Notes: generated by a model not told the origin, from the sequence alone. A stretch of 64,000 nt of DNA from an uncultured Candidatus Binatia bacterium (GCA_965200965.1 OZ241744.1:1760001-1824000), one strand, 5' to 3'. Shown: positions 2,568 through 42,026, numbered from the stretch's first letter. Program-made: numbers and translations.

Positions 2568-2612
2568 GATGAATCATCCTGTCTTCCTCTCGGTCGGTCA
2601 GGACGATTCACC
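2568..2612 (-). repeat. Dispersed GNRA-hairpin element, copy A
   Basis: Minus strand reads GGTGAATCGTCCTG-ACCGACC GAGA GGAAGA-CAGGATGATTCATC: a 14-bp stem with 2 G-T pairs. Confidence 0.75.
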
Positions 2613-2641
2613 TTGACAAATACCACACGTTCGGGTAGGGC
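2613..2641 (+). promoter_or_regulatory. Putative sigma70 promoter of the dpp operon
   Basis: TTGACA-17 nt-TAGGGC just upstream of the ATG at 2658. The -35 is perfect and the -10 is weak. Confidence 0.45.
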
Positions 2642-2657
2642 TTCGGGCAGCCAAGCC

Positions 2658-4781
2658 ATGCGTGGAAAACATCTGCTCCTGTTCGCTCCCCTCGCCCTGA
2701 TCGGGCTGTTGTTGCAGTCATACTTCTGGGTTCCGAGCTATGAAAAGCAGGCCGTTGGCAATCCGGCCCGGCTCCGCACCTATATTGCGGCTTCTATTGC
2801 TGACGCCAGAATTCTGAATCCCATCCTCAATGCGGATGGGGCCAGCAGTCAGATTACCAGCCTGGTGTTTGACGGGCTGCTTGACCTGGACGAGAACCTG
2901 AACCTGCGCGGCCGGCTGGCCACAGACTGGTCTCTTACCGAAAAAGCCTATCTGCTCGCCCGCCCGCAGCTCGCCCTGCCCGACGGCAGCCGGGCGACCG
3001 GAGCGCGCCTGCTGGCGTTCGTGTCCCGGGCCCGGGCAGATGGTGCCCTGCCCGAATTCGACGGCCTCCTCCTTTCCATGCGGCTGCTGCCGGCCGAGGA
3101 AAAAACCGAAACCCTCACGCTCCTGAACCCGGACGATCAGGGACAGCCGACACCACGCCGGCTTGACGTCAGCATTCGTGTGCCTGAGCGCATTGAGTTT
3201 ACCCTGGGGCGGGTTGAGCAGGATTTCTTTCAGCCGCTCATCGCCCTCTTGGGCGAAACCTATTTCCGGGACTTTCCCTACCACGACCACATCACGACGC
3301 CCCACGCCACTCTGGACGACAGCGTGCAGGCCCACTTTCCGGCCCTGTTGCCGGTGGCAGAGCATAACCCGGTCATTGCGTTTCGGTTGCGGCGGGGTGT
3401 CCGCTTTCACGACGGCCATCCGTTTGACGCCGGCGATGTCAAATTCACTTATGAGGCCATTATGAATCCGCGCAATATCTCGCCCCGGACTTCGGACTAC
3501 GAGCCGATCGAGCGGGTGGATATTCTCGACCCGTATACCGTCCACGTCACCTACAAACGCCTCTATTCGCCGGCTATCAACGCCTGGACGATGGGCATTC
3601 TCCCCGAACATCTGCTCAACGCCGCCGCGCTTGCAACCGAAATGGAGGCCCGGCAGGTGTCGGATACGGTGCGAGAGAACTTTGGGATGCGCGACAGTCA
3701 GTTCAACCGCTACCCGGTCGGGACCGGCCCCTTCCGCTTTGTTGAATGGCAGGGTGACGAGTTCATCCATCTCACCCGCAACACCGGCTATTGGGAGCGG
3801 GTCCCCGAGTACGCCGACTATTATTTTCGTGTCATTCCCGAACTGCTGACCCAGGAGGTCGAGTTCAGGAGCGGGGCGATTGACTCCTATGGAGTCCAGC
3901 CCCATCAGGTGGCGCGCTACAAACACGAGGATGCCTATCAGTCTTTTTCCAGCCTGGGCCTTGGCTACTCCTACATAGGCTATAACAACCGCCACCCCCT
4001 GTTTGCCGATACACGGGTCCGGCGGGCGCTTGGCATGGCGCTGAACATTGATGAGATCATCACCTATCTGCTCTACGGAGAAGGCGAACGGATCACCGGC
4101 CCCTATCCACGCCAGACCGAGTGGTATGACCCGGGCATTACACCGCTCGGCTATGACCCGGAGGCCGCCCAAGCTCTGCTTGCCGAAGCCGGCTGGCAGC
4201 GCAACGCCGAAGGCTGGCTCGAAAAAGACGGGCAGCGCTTTGAGTTCACCCTGATCAGCAACAACGGCAACCTCATCCGCTCCAACATCATGACCATCGC
4301 CCAGGACGCCTGGAAAAAAATCGGGGTGAAATGTCATACCCAGGTCTTTGAGTGGGCGGTCTTTCTCAAGGATTTTATCAATACCGGCTCGTTTGACGCC
4401 GTTGTCCTGGGCTGGAGCATGGGCATCGATCCCGACCTGTACCAGATTTTTCATTCGAGCCAGGCCGGCCCGCAGCAACTCAACTTTGTGGGCTATGCCA
4501 ACCCCGAGGCCGATGAACTGATCGTCCGCATTCGCCGGGAGTATGACCCTGCCCGCCAGCGCGTCCTCGCCCACCGCCTGCACCGCGTGATCGCCGAAGA
4601 CCAGCCCTACACCTTTCTGTATGTGGGGCTGTCAACCCGCGTCCTGGACAAAAAAATTGTCCTGGTCGAAAGAGAAGCCGACGGCGATGAACGCTATGAA
4701 AAAATCTACCCGACCAAGAGCGGCACCATCTCCTTCTATTTCAACAAGTGGCGGAAACTGGAGTTCACCCCCGCCTTCTAG
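2658..4781 (+). CDS. Peptide/nickel ABC transporter substrate-binding protein (family 5)
   Basis: Motifs LRRGVRFHDGHPFDAGDVKFTY, PVGTGPFRF and VRRAL; first gene of an ABC operon. ATG at 2658 preferred over TTG at 2613. Confidence 0.9.
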   Translation: MRGKHLLLFAPLALIGLLLQSYFWVPSYEKQAVGNPARLRTYIAASIADARILNPILNADGASSQITSLVFDGLLDLDENLNLRGRLATDWSLTEKAYLLARPQLALPDGSRATGARLLAFVSRARADGALPEFDGLLLSMRLLPAEEKTETLTLLNPDDQGQPTPRRLDVSIRVPERIEFTLGRVEQDFFQPLIALLGETYFRDFPYHDHITTPHATLDDSVQAHFPALLPVAEHNPVIAFRLRRGVRFHDGHPFDAGDVKFTYEAIMNPRNISPRTSDYEPIERVDILDPYTVHVTYKRLYSPAINAWTMGILPEHLLNAAALATEMEARQVSDTVRENFGMRDSQFNRYPVGTGPFRFVEWQGDEFIHLTRNTGYWERVPEYADYYFRVIPELLTQEVEFRSGAIDSYGVQPHQVARYKHEDAYQSFSSLGLGYSYIGYNNRHPLFADTRVRRALGMALNIDEIITYLLYGEGERITGPYPRQTEWYDPGITPLGYDPEAAQALLAEAGWQRNAEGWLEKDGQRFEFTLISNNGNLIRSNIMTIAQDAWKKIGVKCHTQVFEWAVFLKDFINTGSFDAVVLGWSMGIDPDLYQIFHSSQAGPQQLNFVGYANPEADELIVRIRREYDPARQRVLAHRLHRVIAEDQPYTFLYVGLSTRVLDKKIVLVEREADGDERYEKIYPTKSGTISFYFNKWRKLEFTPAF

Positions 4782-4793
4782 GCCAGGACGCCT

Positions 4794-5756
4794 ATGTGGG
4801 TTTTCCTTTTTCGGGCGATGGTCCAGCGCCTCGCGCTCTTGGGCGTGATCTCGGTCCTGGCCTTCTCGATCGTCCACCTTGCGCCGGGTGAGCCGAGCGA
4901 GGTGGACCCGACCAATCCGCGCATGAAGCCCGAAGATATCGCGCGTATTCGCGCGGCCTTCCACCTGGACGAACCGCTCTATCTCCAGTACGCCTACTGG
5001 CTGCGCGACCTGACGACCGGCGAGCTGAAATCGTTCAAAGACAGCCAGTCCGTTCTGCCAAAAATCTGGCGGCGCTTTCTCAACTCCCTCCCCCTGTTTG
5101 TGTGCGCCACGCTCATTGTGTGGAGCCTGTCTTTTCCCACCGGCATCCAGGCCGCCATCCGGCGCGGCTCTGCGTTTGACCGCTCCACCACCTTTGTGGC
5201 CTATGCCTTCATCTCTATTCCGGGCTTTTTTCTGTCCTATCTCGTCATTCAGTGGGTCGTAGACCTCTTCAATGTGCCTGTCATCGGGATGCGCACCTTT
5301 GGTATGGAGAACGCCCAGCCGGCCTTTCGCTGGATGGACCGCCTGTGGCATCTGGTCGTCCCGTCCCTGATGTCGGCGGTTGCCGGCATTGCCATTCTGT
5401 CCCGCTATGTGCGGTCCCAGATGCTCGAAGTTGTACGTCAGGACTATGTGCGAACTGCGCGGGCCAAAGGGTTGACCGAAGACAGCGTGATCTATCGCCA
5501 CGCCTTGCGCAACGCACTGCTGCCGTTTGTGACCATGTTCGGTTTTTTGTTGCCGGGACTGATTGGCGGCTCGGTCATCTTTGAGCAGATTTTCGCCTGG
5601 CCCGGTTTAGGCCGGCTCGGCTACGAGGCTATCCTGGCCCGCGATTTTCCGGTTATCCTGACCCTCAACTTCATTGCCGCAACGCTGACCCTGGCCGGCA
5701 CTTTTGTTTCAGACGTGCTGTACGCGGTGGTTGATCCCCGCATCCGGCTGCATTAG
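4794..5756 (+). CDS. dppB: Peptide ABC transporter permease (DppB/OppB-like)
   Basis: EAA-loop DYVRTARAKGL..HALRNA and C-terminal DPRIR. Confidence 0.92.
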   Translation: MWVFLFRAMVQRLALLGVISVLAFSIVHLAPGEPSEVDPTNPRMKPEDIARIRAAFHLDEPLYLQYAYWLRDLTTGELKSFKDSQSVLPKIWRRFLNSLPLFVCATLIVWSLSFPTGIQAAIRRGSAFDRSTTFVAYAFISIPGFFLSYLVIQWVVDLFNVPVIGMRTFGMENAQPAFRWMDRLWHLVVPSLMSAVAGIAILSRYVRSQMLEVVRQDYVRTARAKGLTEDSVIYRHALRNALLPFVTMFGFLLPGLIGGSVIFEQIFAWPGLGRLGYEAILARDFPVILTLNFIAATLTLAGTFVSDVLYAVVDPRIRLH

Positions 5757-5758
5757 CA

Positions 5759-6724
5759 ATGGCTGAACCCGGCCCAGTACACACGGACGATCTGCCGGCG
5801 GCGGAAACGCCACTCCAGGAAGCCTGGCGGCTCTTTCGGCACGATCGGCTGGCCCTCGCTGGTTTGGGGGTCCTGGGGCTGCTGGTGCTCATGGCCGCGG
5901 CGGGAAAAATCCTGACCGAATGGATTGTGCTTTTTGACCCGGCTGGTGTGCGTCTGCCGGACAAATTCCTCCCGCCCCTGTCCGCGGTGTCGGCCGAGCT
6001 CATCCCGGCGGCCCACCACCCGCCGTGGGGTGTGTATCTGCTCGGCACCGACGAGCTGGGCCGGGATGTGTTTGCGCGTATGCTGCAAGGCTCGTTTGTC
6101 TCGCTGTCAATCGGCTTTATTGCGGTCGGGATTTCGGTCACTATCGGGATTATCCTGGGTGGCCTGGCCGGCTTTTACGGCAGCGTCAAGCTGGGCCCCA
6201 TCCCGGTCGAGACGCTGATCATGCGCTGTACCGATATCATGCTGTGCTTTCCGACCTTCTTTCTTATTCTGACCGTTGTGGCACTCCTGCCGCCGAGCAT
6301 CTACAACATCATGATTGTGATTGGCCTGACGAGCTGGATGGCTACGGCGCGCTTTGTGCGGGCCGAGTTCCTGGCCCTGCGCGAACAGGACTTTGTGGTG
6401 GCCGCCCATGCCCTGGGGCTACCGGCCAGCCGCATCATCTTTCGGCATATGGTTCCCAACGCCATTGCTCCGGTGCTGGTCTCGGCCACCATCGGGGTGG
6501 CCGGCGCTATCCTGACCGAGTCCGGTTTGAGCTTTCTCGGCTTTGGCGTGCAGCCACCGTATGCGACCTGGGGGAATATCCTGGCCGGCGGCCGCGGTTT
6601 CATTTTTGACGCGCCCTGGCTGTTTTTTATCCCAGGGCTGGCTATTTTCATTGTGGTCCTGGCGTTCAACCTGGTCGGCGAAGGTCTGCGCGAGGCGCTC
6701 AACCCCCGCTTACGGAACCGCTAG
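5759..6724 (+). CDS. dppC: Peptide ABC transporter permease (DppC/OppC-like)
   Basis: Motifs LLGTDELGRDVFAR, LSFLGFG..PP..WG and NLVGEGLREALNP. Confidence 0.92.
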   Translation: MAEPGPVHTDDLPAAETPLQEAWRLFRHDRLALAGLGVLGLLVLMAAAGKILTEWIVLFDPAGVRLPDKFLPPLSAVSAELIPAAHHPPWGVYLLGTDELGRDVFARMLQGSFVSLSIGFIAVGISVTIGIILGGLAGFYGSVKLGPIPVETLIMRCTDIMLCFPTFFLILTVVALLPPSIYNIMIVIGLTSWMATARFVRAEFLALREQDFVVAAHALGLPASRIIFRHMVPNAIAPVLVSATIGVAGAILTESGLSFLGFGVQPPYATWGNILAGGRGFIFDAPWLFFIPGLAIFIVVLAFNLVGEGLREALNPRLRNR

Positions 6725-7747
6725 ATGACCGCTCCCCTGCTCGCCATTCACGACCTCCAGGTCTCATTCTTCACCGACAAGGGTGAGGTGCGGGCCGTTC
6801 GGGGTATTGACCTTGCGATCGAGCCGGGCCAGACATTGGCCCTGGTTGGCGAGTCCGGGTGTGGCAAGTCGGCGACTGCCCTTTCGATCATGCGCCTGAT
6901 TGAGTCTCCGGGCCGCATTGTCCACGGCTCACTGGTGTATCGGGGGCAGGACCTGGCCCGCCTGCCCGAACCGGCCCTGCGTGCCATTCGGGGCAAATCG
7001 ATTGGGATGATTTTCCAGGAACCCATGACCTCGCTGAATCCGGTGTTTTCCATTGGCAATCAGATCGGGGAAGTCCTCCGGCTCCACCAGGGGCTGTCTG
7101 AGCGGGCGGCGAAACACGAAGTGCTGCGCCTGCTCGAAACGGTCGGCATCCCCTCGCCGGCGCAGCGTTTCGGCCAATATCCGCACGAGTTGTCGGGCGG
7201 GATGAAACAACGGGTCATGATTGCCATAGCCCTGGCCTGCCGTCCCGAGCTGCTGATTGCCGACGAGCCGACCACCGCCTTGGATGTCACCGTTCAGGCC
7301 CAGATTCTCGAGCTGCTCAAGCGCCTCCAGGACGAGATTGGCATGGCGATTCTCCTCATTACCCACAACCTCGGTGTCGTGGCCCAGTTTGCCCAGGTCG
7401 TCGCTGTCATGTACGCGGGGAAGATCATTGAACGCGCCCCGGTCCGCGCCTTGTTTCACAACCCGGTCCATCCCTACACCCAGGCCCTCCTCCAGGCCCT
7501 CCCGCAAAGACACAGCGTGTCATCCGGTCGGGAGGAAGGCGACACGATGTGTCCTCGGCGCGGTCGCCGCGCCGGGCGGCTTGCGGCCATCACCGGCACG
7601 GTTCCCTCACCCTTGTCCTATCCGCGGGGGTGCGCTTTTGCCGCTCGCTGCCCCGCGGTTCTCGATGATTGCCCAAGCCAACAGCCACAGATGACGAGCG
7701 TCGGGCCGGCTCACGAGACCGCCTGCTGGCTGCACAACAAGGAGTGA
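6725..7747 (+). CDS. dppD: Peptide ABC transporter ATP-binding protein (DppD/OppD-like)
   Basis: Walker A GESGCGKS, signature [16 protein letters not shown], and a C-terminal Cys-rich oligopeptide domain. Confidence 0.93.
7509..7553 (+). repeat. Dispersed GNRA-hairpin element, copy B (in frame inside dppD)
   Basis: GACACAGCGTGTC-A-TCCGGTC GGGA GGAAGG-C-GACACGATGTGTC; 45 bp with 12/13 stem pairs. Confidence 0.8.
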
Positions 7748-7788
7748 ACGTGTCATCCGGTCGGAAGGAAGGCGACGCGTTCACTCCT
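7740..7788 (+). repeat. Dispersed GNRA-hairpin element, copy C (contains the dppD stop)
   Basis: AGGAGTGAACGTGTC-A-TCCGGTC GGAA GGAAGG-C-GACGCGTTCACTCCT; 15-bp stem with 1 G-T pair. Confidence 0.85.
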
Positions 7789-7818
7789 CCGGCCGGCGGC
7801 ACCCAGCGAGGAAGAGCC

Positions 7819-8814
7819 ATGGCAGACGACCCGACTCCCCCCGCCTCGGCCCTGGTTGAGGTGCAAAACCTCAAGAAATACTACCCGGTGCGCAGCGGTG
7901 TCTTCTCGCGTATCTCGGCCTGGGTGAAGGCGGTTGACGATGTGTCGTTTGCCATTCAGCCCCAAGAAACGTTTGGGCTGGTCGGCGAGTCAGGCTGTGG
8001 CAAAACTACCGTCGGCAGAACCCTGCTGCGTCTCATTGAACCCACCGCCGGAGCGGTGTTTTTTCAAGGGCAGGACTTGTGTCAATTTACCCCGGCCGAG
8101 CTGCGTCAGGCTCGGCGGCAGATGCAGATCATCTTCCAGGACCCCTACGGCTCGCTCAATCCACGCATGACCGTTGGGGCGATTATCGGGGAGGCGCTGA
8201 AAGTCCACGCCCTGGCCCGGGGCGACGCGCTTGACCGTCAGGTGAGCGAACTCCTGGAACGGGTCGGCCTCTCGCCACGGTATCGGTCGCGCTACCCGCA
8301 CGAATTTTCGGGTGGCCAGCGTCAGCGCATCGGCATTGCCCGCGCCTTGGCCCTGCAACCGCACTTTATTGTCTGTGACGAGCCGGTCTCGGCGCTCGAC
8401 GTATCCATCCAGGCCCAGATTCTCAATCTCCTCCAGGACTTGCAGCACGATTTTGGGCTGTCGTATCTGTTTATCTCGCACGACTTGAGCGTTGTCGAAC
8501 ATATCGCCGACCGGGTGGCGGTCATGTATCTCGGCAAGCTGGTTGAAGTCGCCCCGGTCGGCGAACTCTTTCGCAACCCCCGGCATCCGTACACCCTGGC
8601 GCTCATGTCCGCCAACCCCGTGCCAGACCCGGGCGTGCCGACCGAACGCACTCTCCTGACCGGCGATGTGCCCTCGCCCCTCAACCCGCCCTCAGGCTGT
8701 CCGTTTCATACCCGCTGTCCGCAGGTCATGGACCACTGCAAGACCGTCCCGCCCCCGCTCGCGCGGCCAAACGGCCCCGAACACCAGGTGTGGTGCCATT
8801 TGTACACCGCATGA
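7819..8814 (+). CDS. dppF: Peptide ABC transporter ATP-binding protein (DppF/OppF-like)
   Basis: [25 protein letters not shown] and [12 protein letters not shown] at 7819 follows GAGGAAGAG. Confidence 0.93.
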
Positions 8815-9004
8815 CCGTGGCCGGCTGACGGGTCAAGGTCAAACTCACGAGAAAATGGGAAGGGCAGCCGCCGTCAGCGGATATGTCGAGGTGGGATGTT
8901 CTACTTGTGCGCACTTTGCAAAAGCGGCTATACAGATATGTGTGAGCCATGTCCATGTGGAAGGCTGGTTCTCAAGAAAGGCCAGTACCCCGGACGGAGG
9001 TAGA

Positions 9005-9922
9005 ATGCGGGACGAAATAGCCGAGCCCCGAGCAAAATACGGCGGGCGGTGGACCAAGGAAAAGTTGGAGATACTGGAAAAGTATCTGGACGCCTATACG
9101 ACCGCACTAAAAAATAAGCCGTTCAAGCTGCTATACATAGACGCCTTCGCCGGTACTGGCTACCTGGAACTCGGTCAAGACGATCAGGACGCCAAGGACA
9201 TCTTTGACGCCTTCGCCGGTACTGACTACCTGGAACTCGGTCAAGACGATCAGGACGCCAGGGACCTCTTTGACGGTTCGGCAAGAAGAGCCGTCGACAT
9301 TGACGACAAACCGTTCGACAAGCTGATTTTTGTTGAAAAAGACCCGAAACGATGTGCTGAATTGAAGAACCTGAGAAGAGATTCCTCCAATAGAAATATC
9401 TGGATTGAGAATTCGGATGCAAACGATTATCTGAGGAATCTTCAGCAAAATTGGCAAGAATGGCGCGGGATCCTTTTTCTTGATCCGTTCGGTACACAAG
9501 TTGAATGGTCCACCATTGAAACGATAGCGAGCTTTCATGCTCTGGACACCTGGATTCTATTCCCGGTCTCTGCAATCTCACGGATACTGCCAAAGTTGAA
9601 GCGACTTGAGGATATTGACGCTAAATGGGGTCGCAAGCTGACAAAGGTCTATGGCGATAAAAGCTGGCAAGATCTGTACCGCCCCGAACCACGGGGTCTA
9701 TTCCCCTCGACCGAGCATGAGAGGACTCCCGGCGTTGGCGAGCTTCTCACAATCTACAAGAACAGCTTAGCTGACTTGTTCGGTAACAGGTTTCTCCAGG
9801 AATCCCGAACCTTAAAGAACTCCAGGAACGCGCCAATGTTTGAATTCCTGTTCTGCGTTGGCAATGAGAAGGGAATTGGCCCTGCGAAACGTATAGCTGA
9901 ACATATCCTGGAGCATATGTAG
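9005..9922 (+). CDS. tcmP: Three-Cys-motif partner protein (TcmP family, SAM-methyltransferase-like fold)
   Basis: [28 protein letters not shown] and FLDPFG motifs; GGAGG RBS; adjacent to DUF5131; visibly more AT-rich than flanks. Confidence 0.85.
9140..9271 (+). repeat. 66-bp tandem duplication inside tcmP
   Basis: 9140-9205 and 9206-9271 differ at 3 positions; together they encode DAFAGT(G/D)[11 protein letters not shown](K/R)D(I/L)F twice. Confidence 0.95.
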
Positions 9923-9924
9923 CG

Positions 9925-10665
9925 ATGGCGGCACACTCCGCAATTGAGTGGACCCAGGCCACCTGGAATCCCGTGACCGGCTGCACCAAAATCAGCCAGG
10001 GGTGCAAGCGCTGCTATGCGGAACGCCTGTCCACCAGGCTGCGGGCGATGGGGGTCAACAAATACCGATCGGGCTTTTCCGTCACCCTGCATCGCGCTGT
10101 GCTGGGCGACCCCGTGCGCTGGCGGAAGCCGCGCCTCGTCTTTGTCAATTCCATGTCCGACCTGTTTCACCAGTCTGTCGAGACGGGTTTCATTGAAGCG
10201 GTGTTCGCGGTCATGAACCGTGCCTCTCAGCACACGTTTCAGGTCCTCACCAAACGCCCGAGCCGTGTGGCTCGGCTGAAGGGCCGGCTGTCCTGGACGC
10301 CGAACATCTGGCTCGGCACCAGCATCGAATCCGAGCGGTGGCTGGACCGGCTCACCTGGCTCACGGCCACCAGTGCCTCCACGAAGTTTGTCTCGCTTGA
10401 ACCCTTGCTCGGACCGCTCCCCCACCTGCCACTGGACGGGATCGACTGGGTGATCGTTGGGGGGGAATCCGGCCCGGGCGCACGGCCGATGGAAGCCGAC
10501 TGGGCGCGGGACATCCGTGACGCCTGCCTCCGGCACGGCGTGCCGTTCTTCTTCAAGCAGTGGGGAGGCCGGACGCCCAAGGCCGGCGGGCGGTTCCTCG
10601 ATGGCCGGGAGCATAACGAGATGCCCGGAAAGAAAGAACGTCTCACCTTCCTCTCGAGCGGATGA
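9925..10665 (+). CDS. DUF5131 family protein (phage Gp37/Gp68-like, radical-SAM-like three-Cys motif)
   Basis: [44 protein letters not shown] and PFFFKQWGG. Confidence 0.93.
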
Positions 10666-10679
10666 GACGTTCCCTCTTT
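10629..10679 (-). repeat. Dispersed GNRA-hairpin element, copy D (overlaps the DUF5131 3' end)
   Basis: Minus strand reads AAAGAGGGAACGTCTCA-TCCGCTC GAGA GGAAGG-TGAGACGTTCTTTCTTT: a 17-bp stem with 2 G-T pairs. Confidence 0.8.
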
Positions 10680-10912
10680 GTCTCAGCTCGCGCATGCTGA
10701 GTGGCGAACCTGATTGGCTGGGGATTGGTCTGCCTCTAAATCCACCGTGCCTATAAGCGCCATATGCGGCTGCTTGCGGGCTTTGACCTCGAGCGAGAGG
10801 CCAGGATGGCGGACATGGCGGCCAACCATGCTGTTCTGCCTGCCGTGATTGATGTGCAGAACTACAGAAAGGAGCAGCGGAATGAACGGAAAACACGCGA
10901 GGAGGAATACTG

Positions 10913-11344
10913 ATGTTTGACGTTGTGACCGCTGCCTATGTGCAATCCGGTGTCGCCCTTGCTGTCGGCATGGCTCAGGTTGGCATAATCTGGATGGGCA
11001 TCAAGAAAATGTCTGAGGCGAGCGAGAGCCGTGCGCGACAGGTGGACCACTCCATGCGCACCCAGGCAGACCGCCATGAAGAAGCCATGCGCACCCAGAC
11101 AGCACGCCATGAAGAAACCATGCGCACCCAGGCAGACCGCCATGAAGAAGCCATGCGCACCCAGACAGCACGCCATGAAGAAACCATGCGTACCCAGACA
11201 GCACACCATGAAGAAGCCATGCGCACCCAGGCAGACCAGCACGCCGAAACAATGGAAGCCCTGCGGCAACAGGGGGAAGCCTTGCGTACGCTGATTGAAC
11301 GCACCGCGCCCAGCGCGGGGGCTGGAAGACAGGAGGCCCAATGA
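10913..11344 (+). CDS. Hypothetical protein: N-terminal TM helix plus six 11-aa repeats (MRTQ[AT][DA][RHQ]H[EA]E[AT])
   Basis: AGGAGG RBS; 33-bp tandem repeats at 11054-11251; near-identical paralogue at 12110. Confidence 0.75.
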   Translation: MFDVVTAAYVQSGVALAVGMAQVGIIWMGIKKMSEASESRARQVDHSMRTQADRHEEAMRTQTARHEETMRTQADRHEEAMRTQTARHEETMRTQTAHHEEAMRTQADQHAETMEALRQQGEALRTLIERTAPSAGAGRQEAQ

Positions 11345-11363
11345 TCCCCCTCCTCTTCTTGCT

Positions 11364-21609: not shown

Positions 21610-22263
21610 ATGTGGGCGATTGTGTGGAAGGATATCCGGCTTGAACTACGGACCAAAGAGCGGCTGGCCTCGTTCTTTGTGCTGGCGATCCTGATCGTGC
21701 TGGCGTGGGTCTTCGCCCTCGGTCCAGAGCGGGTGCGCAATCCACAGGTCGGCGCGGCGGTGTTGTGGGTCGGTCTGCTGTTTGCCGGCATGTTGAGCCT
21801 GCGACAGACCTTTCTGATTGAACAGGAGCGGGGCTGTCTGTCCGGCCTGCTGCTGTGCCCGCTTGAGCCGAGCGACATCTTTGTGGCCAAGTTGATCGGC
21901 AACATCGTTTTTCTGTCACTGGTCGAGGTGATTGTCGTACCGCTCACCATCGTGTTCTGCGGCCTGCCGGTGTCGTGGTCTTTGCTCGGCCTGCCGCTTC
22001 TCATCCTGCTCGGCATCATTGGCTTTTCGGCCCTGGGGACGCTGTTCGCCGCCCTGGCCGTGCGCACCCGAGCCGGTGAGGTCCTCTTTCCCCTGGTAGT
22101 ATTGCCGCTCCTAGTCCCCCTGCTGCTGTCCGCGGTCCAAGCCACCGGCGCGCTGCTGAGCGGAGGAGACTGGACCGGGATGTGGCTGCGGGTCCTGGTC
22201 GCTTGCGATGTCGTCTTTGTGGTGGCCGGCTGGCTGCTGTTTGGTCAGACGGTGAAGGAGTGA
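21610..22263 (+). CDS. ccmB: Heme exporter protein B
   Basis: WKDIRLELR, hydrophobic, PLVVLPLLVP. Confidence 0.88.
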   Translation: MWAIVWKDIRLELRTKERLASFFVLAILIVLAWVFALGPERVRNPQVGAAVLWVGLLFAGMLSLRQTFLIEQERGCLSGLLLCPLEPSDIFVAKLIGNIVFLSLVEVIVVPLTIVFCGLPVSWSLLGLPLLILLGIIGFSALGTLFAALAVRTRAGEVLFPLVVLPLLVPLLLSAVQATGALLSGGDWTGMWLRVLVACDVVFVVAGWLLFGQTVKE

Positions 22264-22297
22264 ACGTCTCGCCTTCCTTTCGATCTGACGAAACGTT
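22263..22297 (-). repeat. Dispersed GNRA-hairpin element, copy E (at the ccmB stop)
   Basis: Minus strand reads AACGTTTCG-TCAGATC GAAA GGAAGG-CGAGACGTT. The plus strand begins AAGGAGTGAACGT, as copy C does. Confidence 0.75.
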
Positions 22298-22319
22298 TTC
22301 ATGAATGAGAGAAACCGAC

Positions 22320-33326: not shown

Positions 33327-33342
33327 GTTTTGTCGAGTCGGC

Positions 33343-34446
33343 TCAGCGCGGGGCCCGGGACGGCTCAGCCACCCGCCCATACAGCGGGATGCTGAGCGTT
33401 TTTTCGAGCGGGTGATCGGTAAAAACCTGCACTTCGCCCTGGATGCGGCCCGGCTGACTATCTGCCGCAACCTTCATCACCAGCGTGTATTCGGCCCCCT
33501 CGGTGACCGTTGCCAGCCGGGCCGCCACCCGCCCGGCCGTGCTTGTGACCCGGTTGATGCGCACCGGCATCTTGGACCGATTGGTGATGGTGACCCTGCG
33601 GGTTGTGTCCGCGCCCGGCGGCACCACGCCAAAGGTGACCTGGGGCGGCCGGACGACGAGTTCGCCCTCAACGCTGCCAAAGACCGGGATGAGCACCGAC
33701 GGACGCTTTGGGCTGGTCGTGGTCACGGTAATCTGGTCGTTCAGACGGCCTAGCGGGGCGTCTTCGGCCACGGTCACAATCAGGGTTTTGCCCCGCTGGC
33801 CGTCTCGTTGGAGCGGCTCGGTCCGCACACGAACCGAAGGGTGGGTGTTCCTTACCTGGGTGATCTCAACATCGGCGCTGGATATGACCTCAACCCGGCG
33901 GCTGACCGCCTTGCCGTAGGCCAGCCGGCCGATGTACAACTGGGACGGATCGGCCGCCACCTCAACCCGGATCTCACCCTGTAGGGTCAGGGTTGCAGCC
34001 GCCTGCCCGGGGTCGTTGGTATGCACGACAACGGTCTTCTTTTTTTCACCCAGAAATTGGCCGGTATCAAAGGTCGCGCTGATCGTGCCCTGCCCGCCGG
34101 GCGGGATGAGGTTGTCTGAGAGAACGGCGGCGGTGCAGCCGCACGAAGCCTTGATTGACTCGATCCGCAGGTCTCTTCCCCCCCGATTGTGAAAGCGGAA
34201 CAGGTGGGTCACCTTTTCGCCCTGCTCAACTGTGCCAAAATCATACACCGGCTGGTCAAACACCACCCGCGGCGCAACACCACTGTCGTCCGCGGTGTCC
34301 GGCTCGACCGCCGGTGGAGCCGGCTGGGCCAACGCGGTGGGGGTCAGCGTCCGATTTTGGGCCTGAACCAAACCGGCCCACAGGACGACCGCCAGCGTTG
34401 TCAGCCAGCGCCGCGCAGCAGGAGCCGCTGTCCACCCGTCAGCCAT
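33343..34446 (-). CDS. DUF1573 domain-containing exported protein
   Basis: Signal peptide; YDFGTV..F.F.N.G..L.I..ASCGCT, followed by further Ig-like repeats. Confidence 0.8.
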   Translation of the reverse strand: MADGWTAAPAARRWLTTLAVVLWAGLVQAQNRTLTPTALAQPAPPAVEPDTADDSGVAPRVVFDQPVYDFGTVEQGEKVTHLFRFHNRGGRDLRIESIKASCGCTAAVLSDNLIPPGGQGTISATFDTGQFLGEKKKTVVVHTNDPGQAAATLTLQGEIRVEVAADPSQLYIGRLAYGKAVSRRVEVISSADVEITQVRNTHPSVRVRTEPLQRDGQRGKTLIVTVAEDAPLGRLNDQITVTTTSPKRPSVLIPVFGSVEGELVVRPPQVTFGVVPPGADTTRRVTITNRSKMPVRINRVTSTAGRVAARLATVTEGAEYTLVMKVAADSQPGRIQGEVQVFTDHPLEKTLSIPLYGRVAEPSRAPR

Positions 34447-34464
34447 AGTGCGCTCCTCCCTGTG

Positions 34465-35880
34465 CTAGGCAACCTGCCGAATCCGCGTCAGGTCTTGAGC
34501 CGCGTCGTGCTGAGCGCTCAGGAACTCTTCCAGATACCTGGTATGAATGTTGCCCGCCAGAAAATCAGAGTCCTGCAAGATGCGCTGATGAAAAGGGATA
34601 TTGGTCTGAACGCCGCCGAGCTGGTACTCGGCCAGCGCCGTCCGCATACGCCGGATGGCCTCCTCGCGGCTGGCCCCGCTGGCGATCACCTTGGCCACCA
34701 GGGAATCGTAGTACATCGGCACTAGCGAGCGATCGGTCACCCCCGATTCAACCCGAATACCGATTCCACCCGGGGCGGCATAGCCACGGATTTTGCCCGG
34801 GGAAGGCAGCATGGTGCGGGGATCTTCGGCCACGATCCGGCACTCAATGGCGTGCCCACGGGCAGTGATCTCTCGCTGTTTCCAGGCCAGCGGCTCGCCC
34901 GCGGCCGAGCGAATCCCGGCCTGGACAATGTCGATGCCGGTGACCATCTCGGTCACCGGATGCTCAACCTGGACCCGGGTATTCATCTCAATAAAATAGA
35001 ATCGCCCCTTGGGATCGACCAAAAACTCAATTGTCCCGACATTGGTGTAGCCAACGGCCCGGGCCGCCTTGACCGCGGCGGCCCCCATCCTGTCCCGCTG
35101 TCTTTTGGTCAGGACCGGCGACGGTGCCTCTTCGATCAACTTCTGATAGCGACGCTGGATCGAGCACTCGCGTTCGCCCAAATGGATGACGTTGCGGTGC
35201 TGGTCTCCCACAATCTGGAACTCGATATGCCGCGCGTTGTCCAAATACTTCTCCACATACAGACTGCCGTTGCCAAACGCCTTCTCGCCCTCGTCGCGGG
35301 CAACCGCAAACAGGGCGGCCAACTCACCCGGATCATGTGCAATGCGCAAGCCGCGCCCCCCACCGCCGGCCGCGGCTTTGAGCAGGACCGGAAAACCGAT
35401 CTGGGCGGCAACCGCCTGGAGTTCGCGGACATCCGAGACGGCCGCGGTCGTACCGGGCAGGACCGAGACCTTGGCCTTTTCCATGATCCGGCGCGCGCGC
35501 GGTTTATCGCCCATGAGTTTGATGTTGCGCACCCGGGGCCCGATAAACACCAGCCCAGAGCGTTGGCAGGCTTCGGCAAAGTCTGCATTCTCCGACAGAA
35601 ATCCATAGCCCGGATGGACCGCATCGGCACCAAAAGACAGCGCTGCGCTGACAATCGTCGGGATATTCAGATAACTGCCGGCCGGCTCGGGCGGCCCGAT
35701 ACAGACACTCTCATCGGCCAGACGAACATGCAAGGCGTCTTTGTCGGCCGTTGAATACACAGCAACGGTCGCAATATCGAGCGAGCGACAGGCCCGGATA
35801 ATCCGAACCGCAATCTCGCCTCTGTTGGCAATCAGGACTCGCCTGAACACACGCTCTCCATTTCGAGCTCGGACCACCAT
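34465..35880 (-). CDS. accC: Acetyl-CoA carboxylase biotin carboxylase
   Basis: LIANRGEIAVR, HPGYGFLSEN and EMNTRVQVEHPVTE. Confidence 0.96.
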   Translation of the reverse strand: MVVRARNGERVFRRVLIANRGEIAVRIIRACRSLDIATVAVYSTADKDALHVRLADESVCIGPPEPAGSYLNIPTIVSAALSFGADAVHPGYGFLSENADFAEACQRSGLVFIGPRVRNIKLMGDKPRARRIMEKAKVSVLPGTTAAVSDVRELQAVAAQIGFPVLLKAAAGGGGRGLRIAHDPGELAALFAVARDEGEKAFGNGSLYVEKYLDNARHIEFQIVGDQHRNVIHLGERECSIQRRYQKLIEEAPSPVLTKRQRDRMGAAAVKAARAVGYTNVGTIEFLVDPKGRFYFIEMNTRVQVEHPVTEMVTGIDIVQAGIRSAAGEPLAWKQREITARGHAIECRIVAEDPRTMLPSPGKIRGYAAPGGIGIRVESGVTDRSLVPMYYDSLVAKVIASGASREEAIRRMRTALAEYQLGGVQTNIPFHQRILQDSDFLAGNIHTRYLEEFLSAQHDAAQDLTRIRQVA

Positions 35881-35884
35881 ATGT

Positions 35885-36334
35885 TCAGACCGGCTCTAAG
35901 ACAAACAGCGGCTGCTCATATTCGACCGGTTCGGCATTTTCGACCAAAATCCTGGTCACCCGACCGCGCTGTTCGGCCTGAATCTCGTTCATCATTTTCA
36001 TGGCTTCGATGATGCACACCACCACGCCCTTTTCCACGACGGTTCCAATCTCAACATAGGGCTCGGCATCGGGGTTCGGAGCGCGATAGAAGGTCCCGAC
36101 CATCGGCGAATGAATGGCCAAGCCCGGATCGAATGGTTCCGGGGTGGCAGCCTTGGACGGCTGGGTGGCGACCGAAGCCGCGGTCGGCGGCGGGACCACA
36201 GGCTCGGCCTCGCGGGCCGAGCGGGCAATCCCCCGGACGAGGCGGACCTCGCCCAGCCGGTTTTTGAGTTCCAACTCGGCCAAGCCCTTTTCTTCCATCA
36301 GCTCAATGAGCTTTCTGATATCGTCAAGTTCCAT
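35885..36334 (-). CDS. accB: Biotin carboxyl carrier protein
   Basis: SPMVGTFY and EAMKMMNEI. Confidence 0.96.
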
Positions 36335-36782
36335 TGTGCAGTAGTGTGGCCACCGCTCGCAGCCCTAACAGATAGCTCTGGGCTCCAAAGCCACAGACCT
36401 GGCCAACGGCGACCCGGGCGAGGTACGAGTGGTGACGAAATTCCTCGCGCTTGTAGAGGCTCGACAGGTGAACCTCAACGACCGGCAAGCCGACCGCCAG
36501 CAGCGCATCCAGGATGGCCACGCTGGTATGTGTATACGCCCCGCCATTGATGATAATCGCCGCGTACTGCTCGCGCGCGGCCTGAATGCGATCAACCAGG
36601 GCACCTTCATGGTTGGACTGAAAGGACTCGACCTCAAGCCCCAACTCGCGGCTCAACTCAAGCAGACTGGCGTTGATGTCGGCAAGTGTCGTAGAGCCAT
36701 AGATTTCGGGTTCGCGCTGTCCGAGCAGGTTGAGATTCGGGCCGTGGAGCACAAGCACCCGTGCAGATTGGCCTTTTTCCAT
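36324..36782 (-). CDS. aroQ: Type II 3-dehydroquinate dehydratase
   Basis: [24 protein letters not shown] and EVHLS. Confidence 0.96.
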
Positions 36783-36917
36783 GACTCCGCCCCCCTCCCG
36801 TTCCAGCCGGGAGTGTAAGAGGAAAAGGCGGGAACGTCAAGGCGTGCTGGCCGCGTCTGGCTTGACCCACAGCGGGCCGAAGGGCTAGGCTCGGCTCAGC
36901 CTGAGGAGGGAGCAACC

Positions 36918-37391
36918 ATGCAGATCGAAGAACTCGCCCAACGTATCCAGACCCTGGAAGACATTGAAGCCATCAAGCAGCTCAAAGCCCGCTACTGCGC
37001 GGGTGCTGATGAACGCGACGAAGCGGCGTTTGTCGGCTGCTTTACTGAGGACGCCAGTTGGGACGGCGGCAGTTTTGGCCACTATGAGGGCCGCGAGGCG
37101 ATTCGGACCTTTTTCCGCGCCATTCCCAAAAGCCTGTCGTTTGCCGTCCACTATGTGATGAACCCCCAGATTGAGGTCAAGGGCGACCGGGCCAGCGGAC
37201 GCTGGTACCTGCTGGAGCCGTGTACCATGCTGTCCGAGGGCGGGCCGCAGGCGGTCTGGGGTTCGGCCCGCTACGAAGAGGAGTACGCGCGGCAGCACGG
37301 CGAGTGGAAAATCCACCGGCTGCGCCTGATCCCGAACTTCTGGACGCCGTTTGATCAGGGTTGGGTCAAGCAACGGTTTTGGGGAGAATAA
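36918..37391 (+). CDS. NTF2/SnoaL-like protein (LinA/BaiE-like)
   Basis: LEDIEAIKQLKARYC, HYVMNPQIEV.GD.A and GEWKI. Confidence 0.85.
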   Translation: MQIEELAQRIQTLEDIEAIKQLKARYCAGADERDEAAFVGCFTEDASWDGGSFGHYEGREAIRTFFRAIPKSLSFAVHYVMNPQIEVKGDRASGRWYLLEPCTMLSEGGPQAVWGSARYEEEYARQHGEWKIHRLRLIPNFWTPFDQGWVKQRFWGE

Positions 37392-37509
37392 TACGCCGTG
37401 CCTCGACTGGCACGAGTTGAACAGCCAGAGCAGACCACGCCGGTCGTGCTTGCATTCAGACCCACGCCTGAGGCGAGGGAGCCGTGGGATTGCCGCTTGT
37501 CCCGTGGAC

Positions 37510-38769
37510 TTACTTGCCCTGCAACATCAGCGTCATCACGCTGAACTGATTGGGGCTCAGCGGCCGGTTGAAGAGAATTTTGTAGACCTCAAACGTATTG
37601 GCCCGCTGCAACTGATAGTCAACCGACCCCTGGGCGGCGATCTGGGCAAACCACTCCTTATTATCCCAGGGGTCATACTCGGGGTGGCGACCCACCACGA
37701 AGAATGTCCGCTTGTGCTTGCCCTCGTGACCGTAGGTCAGGGCGTACAACGGGAGGGCGGTTTGCACATCCATGTACAGCACCCGGCGGCTGTACAGCGG
37801 ATGGGAGATTTTGGGCGTGCCCTCGACAACGACCGCCAGGCGCAGCTCCCACGGATTGACCATGTACCAGTTGGCCTTGCCGCCCCAGGTCGGCCGGTCG
37901 GCCTTGATCGGGCCGGGGGTCAGCACAACTTTTTCTTCAACAAAGGTCCACTCGTAGTCGGCGATATAGCCCAGAAAACCGGACCGGTCCTCAATCAGCA
38001 AAACGCCCCGCTCGGGCGAGACATACGGATTATACACGACCTTGCGCGTCCGCCGACTCTTGGGGTCATAGGCCCACTGGTCCTGGGGCCGGGCGTCGTT
38101 GTCGTAGGTGACGCCGACGAGCTGGTTGCCCTCCACGTCAGAGGGGGCGACCATCAGCGAGTAGCGTTTGGTGAACACCCCCTGACGCTGCCACTGGGCC
38201 ACGTTGCGGGCCGGGTCGGGCCGGTGCATGCCGTACAGCGACAGAAAGGCAAACCGCGTGCTGCGCTCAACCGTGCCGGCGGTGTTCAGCAGGGAATTGA
38301 TGGCCCACATCTGGCTGGTGTCGCCCTGGTCACGGTAGCGCAGATTCCAGGCCGCCTTGAGCCCGGCCTGGGGGTCGTCGGCCTCCAGCAGGGGAAAGGG
38401 CTGGCCGGCCACATAGTTCTGGAGGATGTCTTCGGCGGCGATCACCCCTTCGGCGTGTTGCAGGGTGGCGTCAAGAAACGCTTGGCGAGTCGGCAGATTG
38501 GTCGTCTCCTGGACCACGACCGAGAAGTCGCCGGCGGCAATATAGTTCAGGATCTCGAGCGGCAGGACCGCGGCCGCGGCGCTGGCGTTGGTGCTGTCCA
38601 GGGTCATGCCGGGGCGGACACCGGCGACCTGCGGTGTGCCGGCCTCATACGGGAAAAAACGCTGCATGACGCGCTCACGGAAAGACTGCGCCTGGGCCGG
38701 CGTGGCGCTCAGCAAACCGAGGGCGAGCAGGGGAGCGGCGAGCAGCATCCGGGAAAGAGCACATCGCAC
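37510..38769 (-). CDS. DUF1329 family periplasmic protein
   Basis: Signal peptide, GQPFP..DPQAGLKAAWN and HPLYSRRVLYMD. Confidence 0.85.
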   Translation of the reverse strand: MRCALSRMLLAAPLLALGLLSATPAQAQSFRERVMQRFFPYEAGTPQVAGVRPGMTLDSTNASAAAAVLPLEILNYIAAGDFSVVVQETTNLPTRQAFLDATLQHAEGVIAAEDILQNYVAGQPFPLLEADDPQAGLKAAWNLRYRDQGDTSQMWAINSLLNTAGTVERSTRFAFLSLYGMHRPDPARNVAQWQRQGVFTKRYSLMVAPSDVEGNQLVGVTYDNDARPQDQWAYDPKSRRTRKVVYNPYVSPERGVLLIEDRSGFLGYIADYEWTFVEEKVVLTPGPIKADRPTWGGKANWYMVNPWELRLAVVVEGTPKISHPLYSRRVLYMDVQTALPLYALTYGHEGKHKRTFFVVGRHPEYDPWDNKEWFAQIAAQGSVDYQLQRANTFEVYKILFNRPLSPNQFSVMTLMLQGK

Positions 38770-38780
38770 CGCTGTCCCCC

Positions 38781-40085
38781 TTAGCGTCGGCCGCTGACCA
38801 TGTTGCGCAGCGAGTAGAACTGTTTGGCCCGGCCCGGCGAGAAGGTCCTTCGCATCACATAGCAGTGGGAGTAGGTCGCGTGGGGCTTTTTGGCGTTGAT
38901 GTCGGTCTCACCGACATGAATGAAAACGTAATGGCCGAGATTGTTGGAAAAGTCCTGCTTGAGATAGGGTGCCTGGGCAGCCGGCTCATCGGCATAGCTC
39001 TCCGAGTACTTCAGAAAGTGCTGGTTCATCCGCAGCAGCTTGTCGTCCCGCCGGTCAAAGGCAAACATCCAGTGGGTCCAGTAGGTCTCGGCGTCAATAA
39101 AGACAATTTTGTGGCTGTAGGGGTGGGACTCGCTTTTGGGATCTATCAGCAGTACATGGCTGTCGCGCAACTCCCAGCGGGCATTGTTCGGCACCCACAG
39201 GTGGGGGCCACCGGCCTCCGGGTTGGTCTCGACATTGGTGGTCGCCAGGATCTTCTTGCGACCCAGATAGGTCCAGTTCTGTTCATGGACCTTGCCGCCA
39301 AAGCCCATCTGGTCTTCTCTGGTAAAGTCCATGCCCATGAGTTCGCTCGTCCGCTCTGAGGCCAGGGTACGCCGCGGTTTGCGCTGGGAGGGCAGATACA
39401 TCCAGCCGCTGTCTTCCTTGTAGTGATCGACATAGGTGATCGACAGGTTCTTGGCTCCGGCCATATCGCGGGGAGAGCGGAACTCCATCAGGGACTTGGT
39501 CCGGACCTCTTCATAGCCGGGTACCAGGCAGTTTGCTCCGAGCGCATATTGGGCGTTGATTGAGGTGAACTCAAACTCTCGGTCAAGCTGACCATGTTCA
39601 CTGCGCGACCAAGCCACCATTGGCATCACATAATCGTCGGTCCCGGGCCGCCACAGCATATTCCAGATGACCTTGACGGCGATCTGCGGGTCGTCGGGGG
39701 CGATGGTCGGAAACGGAAAGCCGCCGCCCTTGAAATCGACCAGCACGCCCTCGTCATCCAGATAGTAGCCAGTCGGGACATTCTTGCCCCACTCAGGCGG
39801 GGGTGGATAGTCGCCGGTCTCGGCAATGGCCATCTGCATATCGTCAAAGAAATAGTACTCCCAGGCCGACTGGGGAATGAAGGGCTCAAGGGCTTGGCGG
39901 TCTTGTACGCCCAGGGTCTGTCCAGGCTCAAACATCGGCGGGGCTTCCCGGTGCTGTTCAACCCACTTCACCAAGGCTTGATAGCTCTGATCCTCCGCGG
40001 CCCAGGCCGGAGATGAGGCCCCGAGTATGAGGGCGGCAAAAATCCACATCAGGTGGCTGAAGGGTGGGTGGTGTCCTGTACGCAT
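38781..40085 (-). CDS. DUF1329 family periplasmic protein
   Basis: GFPFP..DPQIAVKVIWN, WMYLPSQRKPRR and HPYSHKIVFID. Confidence 0.85.
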   Translation of the reverse strand: MRTGHHPPFSHLMWIFAALILGASSPAWAAEDQSYQALVKWVEQHREAPPMFEPGQTLGVQDRQALEPFIPQSAWEYYFFDDMQMAIAETGDYPPPPEWGKNVPTGYYLDDEGVLVDFKGGGFPFPTIAPDDPQIAVKVIWNMLWRPGTDDYVMPMVAWSRSEHGQLDREFEFTSINAQYALGANCLVPGYEEVRTKSLMEFRSPRDMAGAKNLSITYVDHYKEDSGWMYLPSQRKPRRTLASERTSELMGMDFTREDQMGFGGKVHEQNWTYLGRKKILATTNVETNPEAGGPHLWVPNNARWELRDSHVLLIDPKSESHPYSHKIVFIDAETYWTHWMFAFDRRDDKLLRMNQHFLKYSESYADEPAAQAPYLKQDFSNNLGHYVFIHVGETDINAKKPHATYSHCYVMRRTFSPGRAKQFYSLRNMVSGRR

Positions 40086-40164
40086 ATCTTCCTCCTTGGA
40101 AAGGCTGCTGTCGGGCGGATATCAGCGGCAGGGTAGCAAACCGGACGCGGAAAGTATAGCCGGT

Positions 40165-41952
40165 TCACAACCCCAGGGCGTGGAGCTTGTGGCCCGGGAT
40201 TGTCCCGTCCGGCCGCCAGCCGCGAGCCTGATAATAGCTCTGGATCATGCGCCGCAACTCATCCGGGGTGAGGCCGACGCCGGCGACCGGCCCGCCCGGC
40301 AGGGTCTCGTTCAGCAGCCGGGGCGGCAGCCAGTCGTCCTGGGGCTGCCAGCCCTCGCGGATGTTGAAGCGCTTTTTGAGGCTGGTGATACGCTCGCCGA
40401 CCTGGCACAGCTCGTGGGCCGACACCGGCCAGCCGGTGACACACTCCAGCAGCCGGGCCGTCTCGGGGTAGAAGTCGTCAAAGCATTTGCGCAGAAACTT
40501 GCACACGATCAGCGAGTCCAGGACCGCGGCAAAATCCTCGGAGGCGGCCACGAACTGACCCCGGCTGTCATCGACCCGCAGGCGGTCAACCTGACCGGAA
40601 AAATCGGCCTCATAGGCCCCAGACCGGTTATGGCAGGCCCCGCGCGGGCTGACCGCCAGCCCCAGGGCCATGGTCTTGAGGCTGCGCGGCTCATAGCCGG
40701 GCAACTCCATGCCCTTGACCTGCACGGTCAAGCGCTCGGCCTCCGGCCCCAGCCGGCCCGCGGCCCGCTTGGATCCCTCGGCCAGCAGCACGCCCTGGTC
40801 ACGGCGCTCGCCAATAGCCGCAATTGTCGCCAACAGGGCCCCGGTCCGGCCAAAGCCCAGCCCTGCGTCCTGGGGAAACAGGCCCTTTTCGGCGCATTCC
40901 ATAGCCCAGGCGATGGTGCCGCCGGTGCTGATCGTGTCCAGACCGTAGTGGTCGCACAGGCCAGCCGCTTGCAGCACAACCTCGGGGTCCGCAATCCCGC
41001 ACAGCGGGCCTAGCGCAAACAAGGTTTCATACTCAAGCCGCTGCTCTGCGCCGCTCCTGGCCTTGAACAGGCGCTCGCAGCGAATCGTACACGACGCGCA
41101 GCCATGGGCGCGGCTGAAATTGGTGTCCAGCAGGGCCTCACCGCTCAGGGCTTCTGCCCCGGCAAAGCTGGACTGCTGAAAATTGCGGGTCGGCAGGCTG
41201 CCCAGGCGGTTGAATACCGACAGGTTGGCCACCGTGCCAAGCTCCCGGTATTTGGCGGTCAGCGGGCCGCGGCTGCGCCGGCGCAAGGCCGCGGCCAGCG
41301 CCTCAACGCCGGCCGGGTCCGCCACCGCAGTCTTATGCTGGCCACGCAGAGCAATCGCCTTGAGGTTTTTTGCCCCCATCACCGCCCCCACCCCACCCCG
41401 GCCGGCATGACGGCCCTCGTTGCTGATGGTGGCAAAACGGACACGGTTTTCCCCCGCCGGGCCGATTGCCGCAATACGCGCCTCGGCGGTGTTGAGAGCC
41501 GCCCGCAGCGCGGTCTCGGTCTCCCTGGCGCTCTTGCCCCACAACCCCGCGGCTTCACGGAGTTCGACCTGTTTGTCGGAAATCCAGACCCAGACCGGTT
41601 CCCTGGCCCGACCGCTGATGAGCAGCGCGTCAACGCCGAGGCGTTTGAGTTCCAGGGCGAAGAAACTTGAGGACAGTGAATCGGCGATACAGCCGGTCAG
41701 CGGCGATTTGGTCACCACCGCCAGCTTGGCCGTGGTGGTCAGCCCGCTGCCAACGAGGGGCGCGCTGGCAAAGATCAGCGGATTGTCCGCGGCAAACGGC
41801 TCAACCCCGGCCGGCGCATAGTCGTACAGCAGGCTTGTGCCAAGCCCGACCCCGCCCAGAAAGGCACGCAGACGCGATTCTTCCAGGGAACGCCAGTTGG
41901 CACGCCGGCGCGACAGATCGATGTGCAGCAAGCGGCCGTGGAATCCGTACAC
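40165..41952 (-). CDS. Aldehyde:ferredoxin oxidoreductase (W/Mo-pterin AOR family)
   Basis: KSPLTG, IGPAGEN, GRGGVGAVMGAKNLKAI, CxxCxxxC, EYET, GLDTIS and RGACH. Confidence 0.93.
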   Translation of the reverse strand: MYGFHGRLLHIDLSRRRANWRSLEESRLRAFLGGVGLGTSLLYDYAPAGVEPFAADNPLIFASAPLVGSGLTTTAKLAVVTKSPLTGCIADSLSSSFFALELKRLGVDALLISGRAREPVWVWISDKQVELREAAGLWGKSARETETALRAALNTAEARIAAIGPAGENRVRFATISNEGRHAGRGGVGAVMGAKNLKAIALRGQHKTAVADPAGVEALAAALRRRSRGPLTAKYRELGTVANLSVFNRLGSLPTRNFQQSSFAGAEALSGEALLDTNFSRAHGCASCTIRCERLFKARSGAEQRLEYETLFALGPLCGIADPEVVLQAAGLCDHYGLDTISTGGTIAWAMECAEKGLFPQDAGLGFGRTGALLATIAAIGERRDQGVLLAEGSKRAAGRLGPEAERLTVQVKGMELPGYEPRSLKTMALGLAVSPRGACHNRSGAYEADFSGQVDRLRVDDSRGQFVAASEDFAAVLDSLIVCKFLRKCFDDFYPETARLLECVTGWPVSAHELCQVGERITSLKKRFNIREGWQPQDDWLPPRLLNETLPGGPVAGVGLTPDELRRMIQSYYQARGWRPDGTIPGHKLHALGL

Positions 41953-41992
41953 ACCGCCCTTGTAGAAAATTGGCAGACAAAAAGAAACAATG

Positions 41993-42026
41993 GGGAAGGC
42001 GTCTTATTTTCGACCTGTGCCTTTCC
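41993..42026 (-). repeat. Degenerate GNRA-hairpin element, copy F
   Basis: Minus strand reads GGAAAGGC-ACAGGTC GAAA ATAAGA-C-GCCTTCCC; the GG after the tetraloop is replaced by AT. Confidence 0.45.

Follow-up and report, generated by a model that had tools for sequence, protein, structure and literature searches.

REP (repetitive extragenic palindromic) hairpins carry a conserved GTAG at their foot, and the palindromic elements derived from IS200/IS605 occur together with a Y1 TnpA and show an orientation bias relative to replication. [quoted passage not shown] The same source describes the Rickettsia palindromic elements (RPEs) as small palindromic repeats of ~150 bp, whose mobilisation is unexplained and which often sit in frame in unrelated functional genes, the added peptide being tolerated (PMC10969869). 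Here we describe a family of 51-nt palindromes in an uncultured Candidatus Binatia bacterium, starting from a stretch of 64,000 nt (GCA_965200965.1 OZ241744.1:1760001-1824000, hereafter the window) in which an original prediction, made from the sequence alone, had proposed a dispersed hairpin family. The evidence supports a real, undescribed, dispersed hairpin family with maintained pairing, and we consider it, with a probability of about 0.8, to be a non-autonomous palindromic mobile DNA element that inserts without target duplication and is tolerated in frame.

Judged by behaviour, RPEs are its closest analogue. As with RPEs in the cited description, the palindrome is found in frame in functional genes (here murJ, oppD, cas3, dnaX and the genes of a histidine kinase and an SDR protein), and the added peptide appears to be tolerated, the murJ insert falling in a loop of an AlphaFold2 model. 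The two differ in length, ~150 bp in that description against 51 nt here (a comparison by description, not by sequence), and in host, which here is a free-standing 3.6 Mb genome and not an obligate intracellular alphaproteobacterium. They also differ in frame usage, since all three frames of our element are used among its host genes and hence no single conserved peptide results.

The genome under study (G000) is a single 3,620,516-bp contig of 61.5% G+C, 99.3% complete. A strict regular expression for the head of the element found 24 copies across it, a profile built on those 24 gave 95 matches, and a second nhmmer round resolved 103 unique loci, of which 98 are nearly complete in length. This copy number exceeds that of a composition-matched control, a Markov-1 shuffled genome yielding 0 loci at E<1e-3. 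With a covariance model (R1) built from an alignment of 32 copies (A1), 135 matches were obtained at E<=0.01, palindromic loci being counted on both strands. The five clear copies first noticed in the window are present and, with scores of 45-70 bits (E 2e-12 to 1.5e-20), form its only significant R1 matches, and their shared 17-nt head pattern occurs there five times against 0.92 expected, with 0/100 shuffles reaching five. A sixth, 'degenerate' copy that had been proposed at 41993-42026 (-) scores 7.5 bits (E 8.7, filters off), which is chance level; genome-wide nhmmer gives no match at that place, and we do not regard it as a family member. The expectation that the family had not been described agrees with our searches, since neither Rfam nor the literature (supplements lay outside the search) gave a description of it. 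Rfam at E up to 10 returned just chance microRNA and snoRNA matches (E>1) for positions 7450-7850, and over the whole window at the gathering score nothing for the element, the sole match being a tRNA gene at 62344-62416.

Comparison of filled and empty orthologous sites revealed insertion events, as expected of the small mobile element that had been suggested. The sister genome G007, which has ~88% identity to G000 over the Opp operon, is without both oppD copies and shows a clean 51-nt gap at each, with the flank not duplicated. All five congeners compared likewise have a clean 51-nt gap in place of the murJ copy, and the second copy in the histidine-kinase gene is absent from G007 and from a further relative, G004. 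We compared 14 G000 copies in four regions with G007, of which 13 were resolvable; all 13 are missing at the same sites, nine differing in length by 51 nt and the remaining ones by 50, 52, 42 and 39 nt. In the reverse direction, among 17 G007 copies checked in G000, 10 were missing, 3 shared and 1 partly deleted, and 3 could not be resolved. The shared copies have lost pairing in either genome, with no compensation. No target-site duplication was found at the clean junctions, where placement is ambiguous by 1-2 nt only, and flank preference is weak and symmetric (C at -4 in 50/87, G at +4 in 53/87). Because copies are largely absent at the sister's sites and the shared ones have been losing pairing, most of them postdate the lineage split and decayed later. 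The comparison thus shows that the family multiplied separately in the G000 lineage and in G007 after the split, and that copies decay in place. One length variant (genome 2387136-2387177; L086:15137-15178) is a 42-nt element inside an ORF, with 9 nt of the head gone; G007 and G004 both show a gap of 42 nt at this site, and the shortened element thus remains divisible by three in length.

Many copies lie within genes. A crude caller places 37 of 91 copies within ORFs by a margin of 60 nt or more, and a stricter test, which asks that the two flanks carry coding signal in one shared frame, retains 22 of 98 (16 sense, 6 antisense). Pfam confirms a number of the hosts. In MurJ one domain stretch spans the insert, in the histidine kinase HATPase_c is split in two by it, an SDR domain is interrupted by a copy, and cas3 holds three copies, between the Cas3 domains; the linker of DnaX, CYTH-CHAD and SLT/TPR proteins and two ResIII helicases are further examples. 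A seemingly intragenic copy in the FTHFS gene proved to be a false call, since the gene truly starts downstream of the copy. Across 113 MurJ homologues the 17 columns of the insert are empty in every one, and the AlphaFold2 model of MurJ (mean confidence, pLDDT, 92.5) has internally low confidence only at the insert, which forms a loop from one helix to the next. Copies are also frequent in the short spacers between genes of operons. The sense strand of a copy has on average 2.28 open frames against 1.56 for the antisense strand.

The anatomy of the unit was derived from 87 ungapped copies, with 4 copies carrying indels and short matches excluded. Two arms of 17 nt enclose a head of 17 nt; split differently, the unit is an arm of 16 nt (consensus AAGGAGTGAACGTGTC), an asymmetric head of 19 nt (A-TCAGATCGAGAGGAAGG-C) and the complementary arm. 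The stem comprises 15 bp with an outermost position R...Y, and an A·C mismatch beside the head is conserved in 74/87 copies. The best-conserved part of the head is its 3' half, GGAAGG, in 64/87. Most arms (e.g. window 7739-7752) read AAGGAG-TGAAC-GTG on their own strand, that is, a Shine-Dalgarno-like hexamer followed by TGA, with GTG five bases past the hexamer. As the arm holds all three signals, a single copy could, to judge from its sequence, both terminate one gene and supply the start signal to the next.

The claim that stems differ in sequence between copies yet stay paired holds across the family. In 32 sequences, pairing is seen in 85.7% of cells, compared with 74.6% for shuffles and ~40% for slid partners. 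Double-sided stem changes number 65 against 22.6 in shuffles, none of 500 of which reach the observed value (a control that ignores relatedness), and among the 87 copies several stem pairs show three or four Watson-Crick types. At one orthologous locus, L026:1501-1555 in the relative G003 and L027:1501-1555 in G006, the head stands in opposite orientation between identical arms, with flanks ~96% identical, which speaks against a strand-bound function; the opposite heads reflect either a flip in place or repeat insertion at one site.

These observations show that the 51-nt unit enters a new site as a single block and leaves the target unduplicated. Insertions in coding sequence persist as 17-residue loops, the reading frame being kept because the length is exactly 17 codons and most frames are open; in a TGA-bearing frame the insertion becomes a new stop codon at the gene end. 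Less certain than this mobile-palindrome part are the following steps. The hairpin, as single-stranded or cruciform DNA, and not two protein-bound duplex ends, may be what is recognised or rebuilt in movement, because from one subfamily to another the arms change in concert, and within a resident copy pairing is only ever lost. The sequence-specific determinant may be the head's conserved 3' half (GGAAGG-C). Lastly, the enzyme would act in trans, and would either lie outside the known transposase families tested or have since been lost.

Several points weigh against the mobile-element interpretation. First, the mobilising enzyme was not found, and hence it is only by inference that we arrive at a mechanism. 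Second, nothing shows current activity: no two G000 copies are identical, the closest pair differing at 2/51 positions and a typical nearest neighbour at 4-6/51, and in contigs from four runs of four studies copies 1-3 of the window are kept and no joint skips a copy, so that no polymorphism within the species was seen in these contigs, which cannot reveal rare variants. Third, the intragenic and orientation counts rest on our own crude gene and coding-potential caller. Fourth, covariation by itself cannot separate a DNA hairpin from an RNA hairpin. Lastly, a twofold excess of sense over antisense copies (see below) is only partly accounted for, and selection at the RNA level is possible.

Going beyond the mobile palindrome itself, the family might represent a new kind of transposition without target-site duplication, effected either by an enzyme that belongs to none of the known transposase families or by replication and repair functions of the host, with the arms regenerated at each move and the multiple-of-three length selected. 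Fold-back copying of one arm would be one example of a route to regenerated arms, and the abundant covariation would follow from such regeneration; the length would let the element colonise coding sequence, essential genes included. We offer this as a tentative extension and, as it stands, a doubtful one. Replication template switching is reported to yield compensatory changes in inverted repeats without RNA selection (PMC8794818). Such hairpin maintenance could have given rise to the arm covariation and to the head flip seen here; it accounts for the upkeep of one hairpin but not for the spread of a 51-nt unit to ~100 sites.

The original prediction had favoured selection on a strand-specific, single-stranded fold. 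A rival explanation is that the family works as structured RNA, with selection acting on one of the strands, for instance by stabilising mRNA, as a hairpin with a regulatory role or as a GNRA-tetraloop module. The hairpin is indeed stable, at z ~-6, its purine-rich GGAAGG is kept, and copies often occupy short operon spacers. The strand-specific signs nevertheless vanish at 87 copies. The head centre, said always to be GNRA, is so in 46/87 only, with GACC, GAAC and GACA common, and wobble pairs, all of which had been placed on the motif strand, number 54 G·T against 68 A·C over 15 stem pairs, i.e. the motif strand has no G·U excess. The predicted RNA folds of the two strands are alike (-29.1 and -26.7 kcal/mol, z -6.0 each). 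Independence of messenger direction had been read from three of the five window copies lying antisense to genes; this is correct for the window, but over the whole genome sense copies outnumber antisense ones by 53 to 25 (p 0.002). A sense bias is what a transcribed function would favour, although the 2:1 excess arises in part because the sense strand, through its stop-codon content, has more open frames. Also difficult to reconcile with a selected RNA are the lack of an Rfam match even at the relaxed threshold, the lineage-specific copies (13/13 absent from the sister species), copies inside murJ, cas3, dnaX and other genes, the loss of pairing in place by shared copies and the head flipped at one orthologous locus. 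We therefore find such a function unlikely. A likeness of the head to domain IV of the signal recognition particle (SRP) RNA (GGAA-GGAAG) was set aside, there being no Rfam SRP match and the heads of related species being quite different.

An RNA route, in which the transcribed hairpin is reverse-transcribed and then integrated, would draw support from the same sense bias, from the absence of all DNA transposase families tested and from a single match to RVT_1 in each of G000 and G007. The same single reverse transcriptase (RT) is however present in the copy-free genome G004, and the RT frame of G000 contains a TAG. The original prediction had looked to an RT gene flanked by copies, and no copy lies within 14 kb of that gene in G000. 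Copies also lack poly-A, a target-primed signature and strand asymmetry, and taken together this makes an RNA route quite improbable.

A REP/REPIN-type system, in which a single-stranded DNA hairpin is the substrate of a REP-associated tyrosine transposase (RAYT; Y1 HUH), resembles our family in its short dispersed hairpins with covarying, maintained stems and in insertion without target duplication. The HUH-nuclease substrate that had been envisaged is at odds with the gene content: Y1_Tnp (PF01797) has no match in G000 or G007, nor in G003 or G005, while control genomes did give matches. There is one Y1_Tnp gene in each of G006 and G024, relatives rich in copies of a related family, but neither has an adjoining copy (R1 <=14.8 bits), a RAYT gene flanked by copies being what the original prediction had proposed to look for, and the RAYT-like gene of G006 is flanked by its own, different GTAG-type palindromes. 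The element itself differs from REP hairpins in that its consensus arm contains no GTAG, and in that at least 22 of 98 copies are intragenic. Replication strands are without bias, 57 copies being leading and 46 lagging (p 0.32, origin and terminus placed by GC skew only), which together with the missing Y1 gene in G000 also sets it apart from the IS200/IS605-derived elements. With no Y1/RAYT gene in G000 or its sister, this is not a REP/RAYT system; we assign the idea very little credence.

The remaining enzyme searches bear on insertion sequences (ISs). G000 and G007 together have 0 matches to the five classical transposase families tested. An IS110 gene beside copies had been another suggestion, and IS110 has no match in either genome; the same is true of Resolvase (serine recombinase), rve and DDE_Tnp_1. 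Y2_Tnp also gave no match, and no control genome matched it either. Three TnpB-like matches occur in G000, of which one, taken alone, falls below the cut-off; copies flank none of the three. No multi-copy IS was found in G000, nor was a parental IS with the same ends found in G000 or G007, the search for a long arm-bounded element having covered these two genomes of the clade. Several candidates were rejected: dispersed repeats >300 bp are EF-Tu, HsdS, a peptidase and unannotated ORFs, with no transposase; two half-copies 1.44 kb apart (genome 2500026 and 2501524), considered as IS ends, are two diverged full copies round an ordinary gene; and the genes in the densest clusters are housekeeping ones (FabH, FabF, an amidase, TPR proteins, an SDR). 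G006 has 49 DDE_Tnp_1 matches and 11 to RVT_1, 10 of them full-length.

A classical MITE, the deletion derivative of an IS whose DDE transposase binds terminal inverted repeats as duplex, would fit the complementary arms of 15-16 bp, which as 16-nt terminal inverted repeats stay conserved between species and in both genera although the middle is different, the copy number (similar to that in the cited MITE description) and the local clustering, but has as slight a chance as REP/RAYT, given the much shorter element, clean junctions without target-site duplication, the missing IS and DDE or rve genes just described, and a covariation of arms between G000 subfamilies that one protein recognising duplex ends does not predict.

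Copies are unevenly spread over the genome, 54 of 103 falling within 2.2-3.0 Mb, which is 22% of its length. This region surrounds the minimum of the cumulative GC skew, at ~2.48 Mb, and several of its copies sit in or by defence genes, namely in cas3 (three), ResIII helicases and a DNA methylase, and near HsdS genes. Neighbouring copies are clustered (28 of 102 gaps <2 kb against 5.6 expected), and those <=5 kb apart are more alike than others, with 11.1 against 15.9 mismatches, a value as low as which was reached in 0/2000 permutations. Elsewhere in the genome, 271-295 kb and 1134-1160 kb are very large internally repeated arrays with units of several kb at 90-94% identity, probably giant repetitive genes.

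Within the window, copy 1 (2568..2615, - strand; 45.2 bits, E 2.1e-12; fold -23.8 kcal/mol, z -4.7) stands directly upstream of, and antisense to, the solute-binding-protein gene of an Opp-type operon (2658..4781, +; Pfam SBP_bac_5). A segmental duplication ends at 2567, and there the right arm of the copy is short of its outer 3 nt; the edge of the duplication falls exactly at the foot of the copy (2567/2568). The duplication, window 1-2567 and genome 1352700-1356383, extends over ~3.7 kb at 90-98% identity, and an 813-residue ORF within it has no Pfam match. Copies 2 and 3 share a host, an oppD-like ABC ATPase gene (6725..7747, +; Pfam ABC_tran and oligo_HPY). Copy 2 (7506..7556, +; 68.1 bits) is an in-frame 51-nt insert that reads through in the gene frame and splits the oligo_HPY match into two stretches. 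Copy 3 (7739..7789, +; 69.5 bits; fold -29.1 kcal/mol, z -6.0) is a 51-nt insert at the 3' end of the same gene, whose stop codon is now the TGA of the copy at 7745-7747; the oppD tail is thereby cut short, and the ORF of G007, which lacks copy 3, continues to a TAG.

The other two copies are antisense. A DUF5131 gene (9925-10665), the Pfam match of which covers residues 5-234 of 246, owes both its stop and its last ~12 codons to copy 4 (10629..10679, -; 65.4 bits). Copy 5 (22255..22305, -; 51.2 bits) occupies the spacer between ccmB and ccmC (Pfam CcmB and Cytochrom_C_asm). The ccmB stop (22261-22263) lies within one of its arms and the other arm has decayed at the ccmC start, with 11 bp still pairing.

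Among 41 genomes searched, R1 matches nine, G000 included: six of the seven other genomes of the genus and two of three from one other genus. There was no match in the other 31 genomes searched. The arm family is carried by G000, G001, G003, G005, G006, G007 and G024, and is lacking from the close genomes G004 and G014. The head of G000 recurs only in G007 among these relatives; the others have elements of 53-54 nt with arms nearly alike (AAAGAGGAAACGTGTC) and a different head of 21-22 nt. Beyond them, metagenome contigs contain 18 stretches with the arm pattern, 14 with full arms, and 0 with head plus arm, and viral contigs gave 0 for either the head or the arm pattern. Public genome contigs gave four single matches to the head pattern, of which only one (L042), from an uncultured Candidatus Binatia metagenome-assembled genome record, is a full copy. 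Runs containing the window stretch are labelled sponge metagenomes, with no RNA run listed among them.

The spread of palindromes in frame into genes has been documented mainly in Rickettsia, where its mode is still unexplained. The same behaviour is now seen in an unrelated, free-standing genome, with a smaller and cleaner unit and many insertions dated relative to a sister. Since both genomes are without the usual transposases, the search for the enzyme is narrowed and the question of movement becomes more testable. For annotation the family is a warning, as its copies introduce new stop codons, lengthen C-termini and cause assemblies to break. For the organism, it shows proteins, including the essential MurJ flippase, gaining new surface loops.

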